The notes beneath the pieces were generated by a model. That model did no database searches. It was given only the letters and a program-made list of their open reading frames with translations, and was not told the DNA's origin. Of a DNA stretch of 64,000 nucleotides, positions 31,950 to 37,892 are shown in pieces. Position numbers and translations under genes: made by a program. This DNA is from an uncultured Alphaproteobacteria bacterium. GTDB taxonomy: Bacteria > Pseudomonadota > Alphaproteobacteria > Methylaequorales > Methylaequoraceae. The DNA lies in the NCBI GenBank assembly GCA_964484795.1, contig CAZAFN010000005.1:273-64272 (forward strand), in the 5' to 3' direction. Positions within the stretch are counted from its first letter, which is position 1; each line of letters opens with the position of its first letter.

Positions 31950-32575
31950 TTTTTTTCATAATAATAACAATACTGACTGTATCATCTTGTGCTTATTATT
32001 TCTTTAGTCCTAGGAAAGAAGTAAAAAAATTTTTTATAATTTTTCTTTTTCTTTCTTCATCAAGCTTCCTCTTATATTTTTTTAAGGGAAATAAAGAATC
32101 ATTTTTTTTTGCTGAGAATCTTAAAAAAGAAATTGATACACTAATTACAAACTCAGATAGTTTGGATAATTTTGATCCAACAAAAATAGTACTTTTTTTA
32201 GAAAATAAATTAAAAGAAGAGCCCAATGATCTTGAAGGATGGATGATTTTAGCAAGAACCTGCTTAATGACAGGGCATACTCAGAAAGCAGATTTCCATT
32301 ACAAAAATGGACTTAAATATTTTCCAAATGACGAAGACCTTCTTTATGAATATGCAATGTTGAAAAAAAATACCAATCAATTCTCTAGTGCTATAAAATA
32401 TCTTGAAAAAATAAAAAAAATTAATCCGCAAAATATTAACTCAAGAAAAGCATTAGTAGAGATTCTAATTCAAACCAAACAAAGTGAAAGAGCAAATAAT
32501 GAATTTTTAGAAATTAAAGAATTAGAAGATATCAGTTCAATTTGGTTAAAAAAAAAATTGGAAGATCTAGACTAA
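31946..32575 (+). CDS. ccmI: Cytochrome c-type biogenesis protein CcmI/CycH-like (TPR)
   Basis: Two N-terminal TM segments, then a TPR-like region. Position at the end of the ccm operon. Confidence 0.55.
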   Translation: MIFFIIITILTVSSCAYYFFSPRKEVKKFFIIFLFLSSSSFLLYFFKGNKESFFFAENLKKEIDTLITNSDSLDNFDPTKIVLFLENKLKEEPNDLEGWMILARTCLMTGHTQKADFHYKNGLKYFPNDEDLLYEYAMLKKNTNQFSSAIKYLEKIKKINPQNINSRKALVEILIQTKQSERANNEFLEIKELEDISSIWLKKKLEDLD

Positions 32576-33462
32576 AAAAACTCTAATCTATTATCTTTTT
32601 CAATTTTATTTTCAATGTGAAAAAAATCAATTAACTCTTTCGTTTGATCTGAAATATTAAATTTTTTCTTACCTAACCTTTTAACAGGCATTATTTTGAT
32701 GACAGAATTGGTGAGAAACATTTCATCATATTTTTCCAAATTTTTCTTATTCACATTTGTAATTTTTATATCATCAAAGAAAAGTCTTGCTTTCTCAATT
32801 ACAACCTTTCTCATAATACCATCAATTCCAGAACCCTTTATTGGTGGAGTATGCAAAGTTTTATTCTTTACAAAGAAAATGTTTGTCATAGTTCCTTCTA
32901 TCAAATTTGATTTGTAATCAAGAAAAACACCTTCAAAGAAACCTTCATTCCACTCTGCCCTTGCCATTACAGAATCAAGCCTATTTAAATGTTTTAAACC
33001 AAAAAGCTCTCTATTTTGAGACAATGAACTCTTACAGTATCTTACTGTAGCACCTCTTTCATAAAGTCTTTCATCTATTACAGGTTTTGGAAACACTAGA
33101 AAAATAACTGTGGACATCATTTTCTTCTCAAATTTGTATCCTCTACCACCTACTCCTCTGGTAACAATTATTTTTAATATCCCCTCACTTAAACCTTCTA
33201 AGTGGGCTTTAAATAATATTTTTTTTCTATACCTTGCTAACAATTTTGAATTTGGAAGATTTATCTTAGTCAATTTACAACTAGTTTTAATTCTTCTTAA
33301 ATGTCTCTTCCAGAATTCCACGCCGAACAAATGTTTATCTTTTTTGTTTCCAAATTGCCAAATCATAGTCTCAAAAAAGCCATCACCATACGATAAACCT
33401 CTATCCAAAACTGAAATTGAGTCTTTAAACTCTCCATTTATTAAAGATATACATTTATTCAT
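32572..33462 (-). CDS. pabC: Class IV aminotransferase-fold protein, probably aminodeoxychorismate lyase
   Basis: Class IV PLP fold blocks (FETMxW..., RG..GG...). It overlaps pabB by 4 nt. Confidence 0.55.
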   Translation of the reverse strand: MNKCISLINGEFKDSISVLDRGLSYGDGFFETMIWQFGNKKDKHLFGVEFWKRHLRRIKTSCKLTKINLPNSKLLARYRKKILFKAHLEGLSEGILKIIVTRGVGGRGYKFEKKMMSTVIFLVFPKPVIDERLYERGATVRYCKSSLSQNRELFGLKHLNRLDSVMARAEWNEGFFEGVFLDYKSNLIEGTMTNIFFVKNKTLHTPPIKGSGIDGIMRKVVIEKARLFFDDIKITNVNKKNLEKYDEMFLTNSVIKIMPVKRLGKKKFNISDQTKELIDFFHIENKIEKDNRLEFF

Positions 33463-34880
33463 TTTTTAAACGACCCAATTGCCTTAAGCATACCATTAGC
33501 TTTTGCCTCCGTTTCAAGCGTTTCATTTTCAGGAATTGAATCGGCTACAATTCCTCCGCCAGCTCTAAAAAAAAGATTATTGTCCTCTTTTAAAATTGAC
33601 CTAATTAAAATATTTATGTCCATATTTCCAGAATGAGTTACATATCCCATAGAGCCAGTATAAGGGCCTCTACCAACTTTTTCTAAATCACCCAAAATTT
33701 CCATACATCTCACTTTTGGACAACCAGTAATTGTACCACCTGGAAAAACAGCTGAAATTATTTTTCCTGGTGTTGACTTTTTCATCTTTTCTCCTCGAAT
33801 ATTTGACACAATATGGTGAACATGGGCATAAGATTCAATTATCATCATTTCATCTACTTCTACTGTACCTGGTTTACACACCCTTGAAATGTCATTCCTT
33901 TCCAAATCAACTAACATAAGGTGTTCTGCCTTCTCTTTATCAGAATTAATTAATTCCTTGGAAAGTTCTATATCTAATAACCCAGAGCCTCCTCGAGGCC
34001 TGGTGCCAGCAATTGGTCTTGTCTGAAGTAAATTACCCTCAACTGAAACCAACCTTTCTGGTGATGAACTAATAATACTACTATTTTCATAAATCACTAA
34101 ACCTGAAAAAGGTGAAGGGTTTTTCTTTCTTAATTGTCTATAAATATCAAAATCACTTAGATTATCATTAGCTCTAAATTTCCACAATCTTGACAAATTA
34201 GCCTGGAAAATCTCTCCTTGATAAATATAATCAATGCATGCCCTAACCTGTTCTTGATGTTCTTCAGATGTATCTTTAAATAATATCTCGACTGAACCTG
34301 AAGAATTATTTGATTTTTTTGAATCATAAATTTTAAACAAATCATTTTGCATGTCATCAAAATCATCTGCAAAAGAATCAAATTTGTCAGAAGTAAAGTA
34401 GATTTCTCTATCTATGTGATCATAAATTATTGATGAGTTAATTCTAGCAGCAAATGCAGTTGGCAAATAAAAAGGAGATTCTGGAATTTTAAGTTTTTCC
34501 TCAATTTCCTTCGCAATTTCGTAACCTAAATAAACAAACCATCCGCCACAAAATGGAATTTTCTTTTCACCTAAAAAAGTTTTATCTTGAAATATTTTTT
34601 CTTTTTCCCACAACTTATCGAACTTCTCTAAAAAATTAATTTCTTCAAAACTGTTTTTTTTTAGTAGTATTTTTGGTTTATAAAAAAGTATGGAATATCT
34701 ATTTTTGGTATTTCCTCTAGATGAACTTTCAAGTAGAAATGGATATTTCTCTCTATTTGATTCTTGAAGTTCTAAAATATCAAAATTCTGGTTTTTCTTT
34801 AATTTGAGAAATCTTGCTCTCCAACCTTTCCCATTAATATCTTTAAATAAAAAATTCATATAAACCTTGAAGTTAGACAA
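33459..34880 (-). CDS. pabB: Aminodeoxychorismate synthase component I (chorismate-binding enzyme)
   Basis: Chorismate-binding C-terminal domain ...[15 protein letters not shown]...[20 protein letters not shown]. Coupled to a class IV aminotransferase. Confidence 0.7.
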
Positions 34881-34894
34881 GGGAAGAATTCACT

Positions 34895-35299
34895 TTAATC
34901 TTTTTTTTCCGACAAAGAAGTCATAACATTCAGATTTCTCCAGAAATCCTCACTTTTGGCATTTATGTCACTTAAACGAATTAACAGGCTCCTCAAAATC
35001 GCTCTAATTACCGGATCTGCAGCTTGAATCTTTTGCTTTAATGTTTTTTCACTAATTGGATATACAATACAATTAGTTGCGGCTTCAGCAGTAACCGACC
35101 TTGATTCTTCCAAAGAAGGGCCCCGTTCACCAAAGATCTCTCCTTCACCTATTTGACCCAACAACAAACCACCTGGACTAAAAATATTCACTTTTCCAGT
35201 ATGAACATAATAAGCAAAATGAGCTGAATCACCTCTAGAATAAATTTCTTTACCTTTATTGAATTTTAGTTGGTTAAGACCAAATTTTGAAGTCTGCAT
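34895..35299 (-). CDS. Stand-alone cyclic-nucleotide-binding domain protein
   Basis: cNMP-binding beta-roll GEGEIFGE...R..T.A.A. 134 aa with no DNA-binding or effector domain. Confidence 0.6.
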   Translation of the reverse strand: MQTSKFGLNQLKFNKGKEIYSRGDSAHFAYYVHTGKVNIFSPGGLLLGQIGEGEIFGERGPSLEESRSVTAEAATNCIVYPISEKTLKQKIQAADPVIRAILRSLLIRLSDINAKSEDFWRNLNVMTSLSEKKD

Positions 35300-35306
35300 A
35301 ATAACC

Positions 35307-36677
35307 CTAAATACTGTTAAAAGATTGTCTTCTTTTTAAATATCTAGCTGAAAATTTATTCTTCGATAAAATCAATCTTCCAAAAAAACTCTTATCACCA
35401 AAATCGTAAGCGTAACAGGGTTGAGATTGAATGTTTATTTTTTTTAAATTTAAAGCCTTCTCCAGTATAACGTTTATTTTATCTAATACAATTTTCTCCA
35501 TAATTGATTGGTAAAATATTTTTTCCTTAATTAAATATACTGGTATTTTGGCACTCGCGAGCTGCTTGATAAGTTCAAAAAAAACATTGGAGACAAATTT
35601 CGACCAATCAACAAAATAGCCTTTAAAAAAAAATTTTGAAATTGAATAGTTTGTTTTAATGAAACGATCAATGAAATCCTTTGAATTAGATCCTAAAATT
35701 TCAAAATCCATCCCAATTTTTCTTTTGTCATTATTAATGGATCTATAAAAACTATCTGCCTTGCTTGAATGCAAACCCTTTAGAATTAAATGAATCTTTT
35801 GGTCCACATTTAATCCCTTATAATTAGGATTTAAATCTAAATTAATCTTTGTCTCAAATTTTTGTGATAAAAATATAGAAAAGAAATCAAGCAGGTCTAT
35901 ATGATTCGTTTTTTCGTGGTTAATTATAAAATGTCTTTTAAAATTGTTAATGGAATGAATGTCTAATTTGTTCCACCAGGAACCCTTAAATTCTCCAGAA
36001 GAATTTATGGCCTCAGTAAAAATATAATCTGTTGTTGAGTTTGTATCCGCAATTGCCACCCTTCTATTATCCCCTCTTATAATGAATTTTTTTTCAATAC
36101 TTGGGATGTCAAAGAAAGTTTTTAAAATCAAATCGTTATAACAAACTATAATATCCCTAATTTCATGGGTTTTAAAATTATCGGAATATTCAATTAATTC
36201 TTTGTTTTTGTTAGATATCAGTAAATACTCTCTTTTCAAATGATTGACTTTCCATCCTGGTATTTTTCTAATTTTATTAAAATGTTCTCTAAGAACTTCT
36301 GAAGCTCTTATTCTTGTTAGTCTGCTTATCCTTCTTTTAGAATCATAAAACCCAGGAAAAAAATCTATCAGACCTTCCGCATGCAAATGTCTTACGGCTC
36401 TTATAGTATATGACGAGATTTTATTAGGATTATATCTGGAATTTGCTCTATAACCCCTCTTCGACATAGAAACCTTTAGAAATTGGTCTTCACTCTCGTT
36501 CCAACAATAATACAACTCAATTAATAGTAACTTCAAATGCCGCAACAATAAAACGTCGTTTTTGCACTTACCTATTAAAATATTAAAAGTATCTGAGAAA
36601 TTATTAAGATTCAGGTCTTTTTGAAAATCTAATGAACGACTAAAATTAAAATCTAATTTATCACTATCATTTTTCAT
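35307..36677 (-). CDS. Hypothetical protein, 456 aa
   Basis: No motif recognised; Lys/Asn-rich. It sits 8 nt upstream of the cNMP-binding ORF on the same strand. Confidence 0.45.
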   Translation of the reverse strand: MKNDSDKLDFNFSRSLDFQKDLNLNNFSDTFNILIGKCKNDVLLLRHLKLLLIELYYCWNESEDQFLKVSMSKRGYRANSRYNPNKISSYTIRAVRHLHAEGLIDFFPGFYDSKRRISRLTRIRASEVLREHFNKIRKIPGWKVNHLKREYLLISNKNKELIEYSDNFKTHEIRDIIVCYNDLILKTFFDIPSIEKKFIIRGDNRRVAIADTNSTTDYIFTEAINSSGEFKGSWWNKLDIHSINNFKRHFIINHEKTNHIDLLDFFSIFLSQKFETKINLDLNPNYKGLNVDQKIHLILKGLHSSKADSFYRSINNDKRKIGMDFEILGSNSKDFIDRFIKTNYSISKFFFKGYFVDWSKFVSNVFFELIKQLASAKIPVYLIKEKIFYQSIMEKIVLDKINVILEKALNLKKINIQSQPCYAYDFGDKSFFGRLILSKNKFSARYLKRRQSFNSI

Positions 36678-36702
36678 ACTATAAAATTATAGTTCTACCA
36701 TT

Positions 36703-36990
36703 ATGTATTTTTTATATTTTCTTGCTAGTATTATCACTCAAATTTTATCAATATACAAATGGACTGTTATATTTTATGTCATATTAAATATGTTAATATC
36801 TTTTGGGGTAATTAATGATAGTAACAAGTTCATCTCTGTGATTATGGATTTTTTTTTTAAACTGGTAGAACCTGCTCTAAACTTCATCCGAAGGTTCATA
36901 CCTAACTTTGGAGCCATAGATATTTCACCTGTAATATTGATAATAATTATTGTAGCCATTCAAGAAGTAATGGGAAGGTATGGGTTTTAA
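36703..36990 (+). CDS. YggT-family membrane protein
   Basis: [26 protein letters not shown], characteristic of YggT/Ycf19. Confidence 0.7.
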
Positions 36991-36992
36991 AT

Positions 36993-37892
36993 ATGAATGA
37001 AAAAAAAATTATCGACGGCAAGTCTATTGCAGCTGAAATTAGATCAAAAATTAAAACTCACGGTGGAAAATTAATAAAAAGATCAGAACGAATTCCTGGT
37101 CTTGCTGTTGTCTTGGTTGGAGAAAATCCAGCTAGTAAGGTATATGTTAGAAATAAAATTGAACAGACTAAGGAAGTTGGGTTTAATTCAATCGAACACA
37201 AGTTAGATGAAAATGTAACTGAACAAGAACTTCTTAATTTGGTAAATAAATTAAATGGGGACAATGATGTTCAAGGAATTTTAGTTCAATTACCACTTCC
37301 AAAACACATCAATGCTGACAAAGTTCTTGACACAATTACCCCAATCAAAGATGTTGATGGTTTTCATGCACAAAATGTTGGAAAACTTTGGTCGGGATTA
37401 AATTCTTTGGTTCCATGCACACCTCTTGGGTGTAGCATTCTTTTAAAAAGAATTACACCAGATTTATCTGGGAAAAACGCACTTATAGTTGGTAGATCTA
37501 ATATCGTTGGAAAACCGATGGCAGCCTTGCTTTTGGGAATGAATGCGACTGTAACCATAGCTCACTCAAGAACTAAGGAAATTGAAAAATTAGCCAAAAA
37601 TGCTGACGTTTTAATCGCTGCTGTTGGAATACCAGAGATGGTAAAAGGAAATTGGGTAAAAAAGAATGCCGTTGTAATAGATGTAGGAATCAACAGAATT
37701 GAAAGGAATGGGAAGAAAATTCTTGTTGGTGATGTTGACTTTGCAACAGCCTCTCAACAAGCAGGAAGAATCACGCCTGTTCCAGGAGGAGTGGGACCAA
37801 TGACAATTGCTTGTCTATTATTAAATACCCTTTTTACCTCATATCAACAGTTTGGGGAAAGTCCTGTAGATCTAACTTCTATCCTTGAGTAA
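36993..37892 (+). CDS. folD: Bifunctional methylenetetrahydrofolate dehydrogenase/cyclohydrolase
   Basis: [12 protein letters not shown]..., [51 protein letters not shown]. Confidence 0.95.

Follow-up and report, generated by a model that had tools for sequence, protein, structure and literature searches.

Genes at the Locus

The 64,000-nucleotide stretch analyzed here, referred to as the window, corresponds to positions 273–64,272 of contig CAZAFN010000005.1 (assembly GCA_964484795.1) from an uncultured Alphaproteobacteria bacterium. Its G+C content is around 30%. Two open reading frames (ORFs) on its minus strand, here designated X and CNB, are the subject of this report; both start with ATG in the ORF listing. 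The protein X is very probably a catalytically degenerate member of a family related to family-A polymerases, and CNB is a sensor domain for cyclic nucleoside monophosphates (cNMPs). The pair is best explained as an operon of two genes that is specific to, and vertically inherited in, an uncultured lineage of SAR11 type (Pelagibacterales-like). The genes and spacers are as follows.

35307..36677, minus strand: gene X, 456 aa, from the ORF listing; predicted catalytically degenerate, compact family-A-polymerase-like member, net charge +26
35300..35306, minus strand: spacer of 7 nt between the stop codon of X and the start codon of CNB, GGTTATT (TAG-GGTTATT-ATG)
34895..35299, minus strand: gene CNB, 134 aa, PF00027; cyclic-nucleotide-binding domain that stands alone, with a helix at its C-terminus and no output domain
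36678..36702, strand not applicable: spacer of 25 nt between X and the divergent gene yggT

An initial annotation of this DNA, made from the sequence, described a two-gene unit of a 456-aa and a 134-aa ORF on the same strand, separated by 8 nt. Both ORFs are present as described, while the gap is one nucleotide shorter. Based on Pfam, the divergent genes yggT and folD lie upstream of X, and homologues of pabB and pabC lie downstream of CNB. The transcription unit of X and CNB must start within the 25-nt spacer between X and the divergent yggT.

CNB Is a Stand-Alone Cyclic-Nucleotide-Binding Domain

The Pfam family PF00027 (cNMP_binding) matches residues 12–92 of CNB with 55 bits, against a cutoff of 27.5 bits. 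No family of helix-turn-helix (HTH) domains is matched in Pfam or NCBIfam, so the earlier description of the small ORF as a cNMP-binding domain standing alone is borne out. The NCBIfam model of CRP is covered only at positions 27–138 of 214, with 31 bits against a cutoff of 266 bits, and the covered part corresponds to the sensor and the C-helix. Since it has no HTH and covers only this part of the CRP model, CNB is not a CRP/FNR regulator. In public data, CNB proteins (P0424, P0515) are named "Crp/Fnr family transcriptional regulator" in metagenome-assembled genomes (MAGs) at NCBI, or "CRP-like cAMP-binding protein" at JGI. The naming is misleading because CNB contains no DNA-binding domain. 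For the same reason, any output of CNB must come from a separate protein.

Two parts of CNB are considered below.

35081..35134, minus strand: phosphate-binding cassette, residues 56–73, FGERGPSLEESRSVTAEA, with F56-G57-E58 and R67-S68-V-T-A71
34895..35023, minus strand: C-terminal helical segment, residues 93–134, conserved, located past the Pfam beta-roll and aligned to the C-helix region of the CRP model

The sequence GEGEIFGE, highlighted in the initial annotation, begins at residue 51. The same annotation gave the conserved part of the cassette as Arg/Ala; the residues found are Arg-Ser (R67-S68). CNB therefore has the conserved Gly-Glu and Arg-Ser/Thr that characterize the cNMP domain. 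Residues F56, G57, E58, R67, S68, and A71 are each at least 98% conserved among 113 orthologues. We take it from established knowledge of the cNMP domain that the residues of the cassette contact the ribose and the cyclic phosphate. CNB is a genuine stand-alone cNMP-binding domain, and is predicted to be a binder by its intact cassette. The C-terminal segment is a candidate for a dimerization or partner-contact element.

Orthologues of CNB form 157 clusters. Nearly all are 129–140 aa in length, except for a few truncated or mis-called entries, and they are at least 66% identical. The ratio of nonsynonymous to synonymous substitution rates (dN/dS; the Nei–Gojobori method on 27 unsaturated pairs was used for all ratios given here) is 0.022 for CNB, the lowest in the region. 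Among solved structures, the cNMP domain of the EAL enzyme Bd1971 matches the CNB sequence best, followed by PKG, PKA-R, CRP, and SthK. In PADLOC, CNB shows domain-level resemblance to the sensor domains of Pycsar effectors (E = 4e-7).

X Is Under Purifying Selection

X has no match in Pfam, NCBIfam, or PADLOC, and a sequence search found no relative among PDB sequences. Two PHROG families of unknown function are matched weakly (E = 0.0076 and 0.12). The combined Lys and Asn content is 19.5%, in agreement with the Lys/Asn-rich character noted earlier. The positive net charge is spread across both halves of the protein; the net charges of PabB and FolD are 0 and +7, respectively.

A word-indexed search found homologues of X in 116 clusters, nearly all of SAR11 type. 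They are 450–480 aa in length and 36–46% identical, and none is annotated. The named relatives come from single-amplified genomes and MAGs assigned to Pelagibacteraceae, Rickettsiales, or Alphaproteobacteria, and no cultured strain is seen among these named sources. The first 70 residues are conserved family-wide, which indicates that the start of the 456-aa ORF is correct. Some public gene calls start X at Met71, giving a protein of 386 aa (P0001) and skipping 36468–36677 of the window; the full ORF is intact in L059. The shorter version was considered as a truncated protein, and is explained instead by the choice of start codon in gene calling. In one contig (L060), the frame is disrupted in the 5' part of X. 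The X genotype of the window is found intact in independent metagenomes.

The dN/dS of X is 0.120, with 0.097 for the N-terminal half and 0.127 for the C-terminal half. The values for the neighbors are 0.067 (FolD), 0.087 (PabB), and 0.139 (YggT); none was obtained for PabC. Because purifying selection is seen on both halves, X is, as judged from substitution patterns, a working gene and not a relic. The median identity to the window copy is 41% for X, 78% for CNB, 72% for FolD, 68% for PabB, 62% for YggT, and 56% for PabC. By this measure, X is the fastest-evolving gene of the neighborhood.

35928..36677, minus strand: N-terminal half of X, residues 1–250, conserved in both the SAR11 clade and the mobile-element clade described below

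The residues of this half that are invariant in both clades are SRYN (80–83), R122, E150, Y164, Y180-N181, D190, G232, and W234-W235. In the structure model of X, the order of secondary structures is a helix at 42–61, a strand at 66–69, a helix at 90–100, and beta strands at 104–125. The segment of residues around 42–125 may be winged-helix-like.

The Parent Family Has a Predicted Polymerase-Like Fold

An exhaustive HMMER search with the alignment of SAR11 sequences revealed a very large family. At least 3,920 representatives of 50%-identity clusters are found at E ≤ 1e-3, 2,038 at E ≤ 1e-10, and 476 at E ≤ 1e-30. The SAR11 profile matches one of the relatives, P0116, with E = 1.4e-99, and the homology extends over the full length. 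Members outside SAR11 match phrog_4756 ("unknown function") at E-values from 1e-40 to 1e-60, with weak side matches to models of single-subunit RNA polymerases. X alone gives no phrog_4756 match at E ≤ 1, so its membership in this PHROG 4756-type family is established through profile and structure. The family is distributed in phages, integrative elements, and genomic islands. It is seen in 286 cultured phage genomes, including phages of Vibrio, Rheinheimera, Aeromonas, and Shewanella, always as hypothetical proteins. Members are around 450–520 aa in length, and some are around 600–700 aa with N-terminal extensions (P0116, P0121–P0371; L005, L045, L046, L050–L052). One member is called "DNA polymerase family A" in UniRef. 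A Pfam scan of 83 relatives found no DNA_pol_A match, and PF00940 (RNA_pol) was sub-threshold in 3 of the 83.

Predicted structures connect this family to family-A polymerases. The AlphaFold2 model of X has a mean predicted local distance difference test score (pLDDT) of 89.4 and a predicted template modeling (TM) score of 0.89. The initial annotation recognized no domain in X. Foldseek with this model against PDB returned nearly exclusively family-A polymerases, in weak matches with a best E of 2.5e-3 and TM scores around 0.25. Against BFVD, around a dozen phage proteins of 400–450 aa are matched over the full length, with E-values from 1e-13 to 1e-18 and TM scores up to 0.68. The names "DNA polymerase" and "Putative DNA polymerase I" are attached to some of these phage proteins, with genuine PolA enzymes ranking next. 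The model of P0116, which retains all catalytic motifs, has a pLDDT of 91.8 and gives 31 PDB matches at E ≤ 1e-3, all of which are family-A polymerases. The next PDB matches are mitochondrial RNA polymerases and T7 DNA polymerase, at up to 21% identity over approximately 270–290 columns. Motif-intact relatives such as this one give stronger fold matches than X does. The TM scores of the predicted models of X and P0116 against PolA structures are just 0.2–0.35, and the similarity is seen in the palm and fingers.

The order of motifs in the parent family is also that of family-A polymerases: GR...IP, the Asp of motif A, RxxxK of motif B, and HD[ES] of motif C. The family is invariant for GR, D, RxxxK, and HDS, and the GR/IP, D, RxxxK, and HD residues are invariant columns in both of two independent alignments. 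When hhalign is restricted to the core, the family is collinear with T7 DNA polymerase over 191 columns with four motif sets in register, at a non-significant E of 0.11. In this register, G-R...IP, D, RxxxK, and HD correspond to GR(429)...IP, D475, R518/K522, and H653-D654 of T7 DNA polymerase. Also in non-significant hhalign alignments, motif C of the family aligns with VHDE of T7 DNA polymerase and IHDS of T7 RNA polymerase. The support for the family-A-like fold is thus good, and comes from structure prediction and the order of motifs rather than from sequence statistics. The earlier remark that X belongs to an unrecognizable family is accurate for the standard libraries of hidden Markov models, which are blank. 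The relatives and the fold nevertheless place X, as a degenerate member, in a phage and mobile-element family with a predicted family-A fold.

Loss of Catalytic Residues in the SAR11 Clade

The catalytic residues were counted in 104 SAR11 sequences and 128 other members of the family. The roles of motifs A, B, and C are well established for family-A polymerases. The corresponding segments of X are as follows.

35961..35996, minus strand: remnant of the GG motif (GGRFYGGWWQ), X residues 228–239, GEFKGSWWNKLD, from the census
35880..35903, minus strand: remnant of motif A, X residues 259–266, HIDLLDFF, from the census and alignment
35766..35807, minus strand: remnant of motif B, X residues 291–304, VDQKIHLILKGLHS, from the census
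35511..35546, minus strand: remnant of motif C, X residues 378–389, IPVYLIKEKIFY, from the census

The Arg of the GR motif is present in 126 of the 128 relatives and in none of the 104 SAR11 sequences, which do retain G232, W234, and W235. In the core-restricted hhalign alignment (E = 0.11, non-significant), the segment GEFKGSWWNKLD is in register with GRATHAFPNLAQIP of T7 DNA polymerase. At motif A, the Asp is invariant in the relatives (128/128). The SAR11 sequences have Asp in 82, Asn in 15, Ser in 5, and Glu in 2, and the window copy keeps D261. The Glu and His of motif A, seen in 128 and 121 of the 128 relatives, are missing from all SAR11 sequences. The Lys of motif B shows the same contrast (128/128 versus 0/104). 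It is replaced by I295 in X, and there is no conserved Arg upstream.

At motif C, the H-D-S of the relatives (His in 119, Asp in 125, and Ser in 124 of the 128) corresponds to K-E-K in X, with E385 at the acidic position. The pattern of the clade is [KRQ], then D (72), E (27), S (3), or N (2), then K (88) or R (9). Neither the His nor the Ser is found in any SAR11 sequence. Asn or Ser occupies one or both of the metal-binding positions in 22 of the 104 orthologues (21%). Accordingly, the carboxylates of motifs A and C, invariant in family A, are not invariant in this clade, and the triphosphate-binding Arg/Lys of motif B is lost. Other positions have become invariant specifically in SAR11: K300 (101/104), D239, P84-N85, and K386. 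Judged by this residue pattern, X is a putative pseudo-enzyme under a new constraint, not a product of random decay.

Origin of X

In a neighbor-joining tree, all 104 SAR11 sequences are monophyletic. Their branch is the longest internal branch of the tree, at 0.85, compared with a median of 0.035 and a 95th percentile of 0.20. The motif-intact relatives are found in different surroundings. One lies directly after a phage-type integrase in the 1.36-Mb chromosome (CP159827) of a streamlined marine methylotroph of Methylophilaceae, with small unannotated ORFs following it (L046:6797–9482); this member is probably on a small integrated element. Another is located in an island with integrase, Mrr, SIR2, and HARE-HTH genes. 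Others are beside transposases of insertion sequences (ISs), or in the replication and packaging regions of phages. The gene for P0116 lies at the start of a contig of 5.8 kb (L005) that is AT-rich and carries small unknown genes. Immediately upstream of it are four tandem repeats of ATAACTA (L005:1–41), which are iteron-like, as expected for the replication gene of a small element. No neighbor with a cNMP domain is seen beside any of the motif-intact relatives examined. The simplest reading of these sequence data would be a single acquisition from a mobile element, followed by fixation between folD–yggT and pabB–pabC and then a burst of change.

Conservation of the Pair

X is directly followed by CNB on the same strand in all 41 SAR11-type loci. 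Scanning GTDB species representatives yielded 37 of these, and the others are on metagenome contigs. The frame of the locus is constant, with folD–yggT on one side of the pair and pabB–pabC on the other. In loci with two intact, unambiguous ORFs, X and CNB are mostly spaced between a 41-nt overlap and +24 nt. One apparent overlap of 122 nt reflects an uncertain call of the ORF start. CNB is known at the X locus only, and its most divergent members map there too. This co-occurrence is far beyond chance. The two genes form a conserved unit, and neither of the findings that the initial annotation named as refuting it arose: X belongs to no housekeeping family by hidden Markov models, and the genes co-occur in every locus.

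Several apparent exceptions were rejected. An ORF fusing X and CNB in L031 is explained by ambiguous "n" bases at the junction, which hide a stop codon. The divergent or long CNB entries P0508 and P0418 come from the X-CNB locus in long-read assemblies rich in frameshifts. In four long-read metagenome assemblies labeled "pilon" (L007, L044, L048, and L049), the region is split into short ORFs, and P0418 is a spurious "CNB" of 223 aa from such a region. This break-up looks like uncorrected indel errors rather than pseudogenization.

Comparison with Known Systems

The CRP/FNR regulators share with CNB the sensor fold, the intact Glu/Arg cassette, and the C-terminal helix; the logic of cNMP-controlled nucleic acid binding proposed below is also the same. 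They differ in having a winged HTH in the same chain, whereas the candidate partner of CNB is a separate protein with a polymerase-like fold. The relatives of PHROG 4756 type show full-length homology to X and have all of the N-terminal invariant motifs in common. Unlike X, which is degenerate and fixed at one locus, they are motif-intact, reside in phage, integrase, or IS contexts, and have no cNMP-sensor partner. Family-A DNA polymerases and the T7-like and mitochondrial single-subunit RNA polymerases share the core fold, and the parent family has their motif order. The X family is around half their size, has no exonuclease domain, and escapes detection by Pfam and profile–profile comparison, and the catalytic set of X is degenerate.

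CCPol-MP of staphylococcal cassette chromosome (SCC) elements, as described in PMC10201439, consists of a truncated PolA and a small partner, and it is active and capable of priming. As for X and CNB, a shortened A-family polymerase-like protein derived from a mobile element is combined with a small protein. By contrast, CCPol-MP is active, works with the helicase Cch2, and resides on mobile elements, and MP is a beta-barrel protein, not a cNMP sensor (PMC10201439). X has lost the catalytic residues, and neither a helicase nor a mobile element is seen around its locus. ImuB, an inactive polymerase kept as a scaffold, offers a precedent (PMC12926913). It differs in belonging to family Y, in acting within the ImuA-ImuB-DnaE2 mutasome, and in having no ligand-sensing partner. 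Term searches of the main texts of these two papers found the X family neither in the reclassification of PolA into 19 clusters (PMC10201439, 2023) nor in the 2026 survey of bacterial polymerases (PMC12926913). The literature searched contained nothing linking SAR11 to the pair, and nothing relevant on SAR11 or Pelagibacter with cNMP, Crp, or cyclases or on miniature single-subunit polymerases.

Pycsar effectors and Bd1971 have a CNB-type sensor domain that controls another activity, as seen in the PADLOC and PDB matches of CNB. In these proteins, however, sensor and effector (TIR, transmembrane, or EAL) are fused in one polypeptide, and Pycsar genes reside beside a cyclase gene in variable islands, whereas CNB stands alone at a fixed locus. 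The features of Pycsar and CBASS are not seen here: no cyclase is adjacent, there is no killing effector (TIR, transmembrane, or nuclease), and the distribution is not island-like.

Proposed Function and Alternatives

The data suggest that a polymerase scaffold has been reused for signaling or regulation, and a role of the pair in such processes is plausible. Functional coupling between X and CNB is rather likely on the basis of the locus and sequence data. There is about an even chance that X is a domesticated pseudo-polymerase that serves as the nucleic acid-binding partner of a cNMP sensor.

X descends from a phage or mobile-element family of polymerase-like proteins and became fixed at this locus. 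It has lost the residues for polymerization while staying intact and very basic. The following steps can be proposed for its function. X would no longer polymerize. It could instead act as a scaffold that binds nucleic acids, using the conserved N-terminal half, where a winged helix may be present, together with the polymerase-like cleft that it retains. CNB would bind a cyclic nucleotide, and its C-terminal helix would associate with X, switching the binding of X to DNA or RNA. X and CNB together would then be a two-polypeptide functional analogue of CRP, coupling a cNMP signal to DNA or RNA binding. Candidate targets are the folate and one-carbon genes on either side (folD and pabBC, as well as the DAO-family gene in relatives). 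This specific CRP-like mechanism with split components is put forward tentatively. Somewhat less probable is the broader proposal that a mobile-element polymerase with a Klenow fold was domesticated into a non-catalytic, cNMP-gated nucleic acid-binding regulator, and that the parent family is a new minimal family-A-like branch, possibly of element-specific primases or replicases.

Several observations weigh against the pseudo-polymerase reading. The assignment of X to the polymerases rests on predicted structures and motif order, and the sequence-profile links to PolA are non-significant. This holds for hhalign of the family against T7 DNA polymerase, T7 RNA polymerase, and a profile of six PolA members, and a profile of 83 diverse relatives finds no match among PDB sequences. 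For the winged helix, the structure matches of X in BFVD to winged HTH regulators are weak (E around 0.17), and the N-terminal profile of X finds nothing among PDB sequences. The spacers between X and yggT in related loci contain no conserved operator. No cyclase gene adjoins the pair, whose neighbors are yggT, folD, pabB, and pabC, with the DAO gene in relatives. Acidic residues are kept at both catalytic positions in 79% of orthologues (82/104), and because of these carboxylates and the purifying selection on the C-terminal half, residual or altered chemistry in X is possible. Finally, folD, yggT, pabB, and pabC are all as syntenic as the pair itself, which makes adjacency alone modest evidence for a functional link.

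The last point leads to the first alternative, in which X and CNB are functionally unrelated neighbors whose spacing and order come from compact syntenic genomes, and CNB signals to another target. Short or overlapping intergenic distances are indeed usual in the window, as seen in the gap between X and yggT and the overlap of pabB and pabC. However, the X clade and CNB share the same narrow distribution, each at this locus only. The DAO gene is inserted beside the pair in most loci, yet neither it nor any other gene is ever found between X and CNB. A sensor lacking an output requires a partner; among co-transcribed genes, X is the sole candidate to which no other function is assigned. This alternative is considered unlikely.

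The second alternative is that X is still an enzyme, a re-tooled palm-domain nucleotidyltransferase such as a primase-like protein, a synthase of a nucleotide signal, or a cyclase, with CNB as its allosteric regulator or product receptor. Class III cyclases, GGDEF domains, and Cas10 likewise have palm domains. Motif C retains an acidic residue in 99 and motif A in 84 of the 104 sequences, the C-terminal half is constrained as described above, and three of the clade-specific invariants (K300, K386, and D239) flank the old active site. The absence of a separate cyclase gene next to the sensor would also fit an enzyme that synthesizes the nucleotide sensed by CNB, which we regard as a rarer alternative. 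Nevertheless, the Lys of motif B, the Arg of the GR motif, and the Glu and His of motif A are lost in all sequences, and no conserved Arg is present upstream of motif B. The 22 orthologues with Asn or Ser at a metal-binding position experience the same purifying selection, and such residues would be incompatible with a conserved two-metal mechanism. X also gives weaker fold matches than the motif-intact relatives. An enzymatic X is therefore improbable.

Still harder to sustain is an anti-phage or anti-mobile-element module, in which X would be a domesticated replication-type decoy or blocker triggered or tuned by a cyclic-nucleotide alarm through CNB: the phage and mobile-element origin of X, its fast evolution, the resemblance of CNB to Pycsar sensors, and the island with Mrr and SIR2 around one motif-intact relative are consistent with it, but all 41 loci are at the same housekeeping position without presence/absence variation or island features, no cyclase, TIR, nuclease, or membrane effector domain accompanies the 134-aa CNB, PADLOC is blank for X and PADLOC and NCBIfam find nothing in ten motif-intact relatives, and the dN/dS of X bears no sign of an arms race while CNB is the most conserved gene of the region. 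The likeness to defense modules drawn in the initial annotation is accordingly not upheld.

If the pseudo-polymerase reading with a partner sensor is true, the pair would represent a class of regulators not described before, one that uses a polymerase scaffold and works as a "split CRP" together with a stand-alone sensor. It would show that a streamlined genome can fix and repurpose a gene from a mobile element, and that a polymerase fold can be kept as a pseudo-enzyme partnered with a second-messenger sensor. It would also show cyclic-nucleotide signaling in this lineage despite a sensor without an output domain. SAR11-type bacteria dominate the surface ocean and carry very few regulators; with so few, any conserved sensor module is informative on how they sense the environment. 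Apart from the pair, the analysis has exposed a very large unannotated family of half-size, family-A-like polymerase proteins in phages and integrative elements, for which Pfam, NCBIfam, and PADLOC have no model. If the parent family is active, it would extend the minimal architecture of this enzyme class and could provide compact polymerases or primases of potential use.

Intergenic Regions and Flanking Genes

Scans for promoters and terminators stayed at chance level, with 21 promoter sites against 14.2 ± 3.7 expected and 1 terminator-like hairpin against 1.1 expected. A perfect palindrome of 16 bp, ACTATAAAATTATAGT (36678–36693), occupies most of the spacer between X and yggT. It was considered as an operator and rejected, as the related spacers of 16–45 nt share no dyad. 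Because it is not conserved in related loci, the palindrome is probably a chance occurrence in AT-rich DNA.

The pabB ORF as listed begins with TTG at 34880, 14 nt past CNB. Based on the relatives and public gene calls, the true start of pabB is the ATG at 34859, giving a protein of 466 aa. The gap between CNB and pabB is then around 35 nt. It contains a weak hairpin (34865–34882) that is statistically indistinguishable from chance.

In most related loci, a gene for a DAO-family FAD oxidoreductase lies between CNB and pabB on the opposite strand. This gene is missing in the window and in L001, L011, and L015. All genes flanking the pair in the window (32572–37892) have a link to folate and one-carbon metabolism, with folD upstream and pabB–pabC downstream, and the same is seen in L003 and L008–L043.

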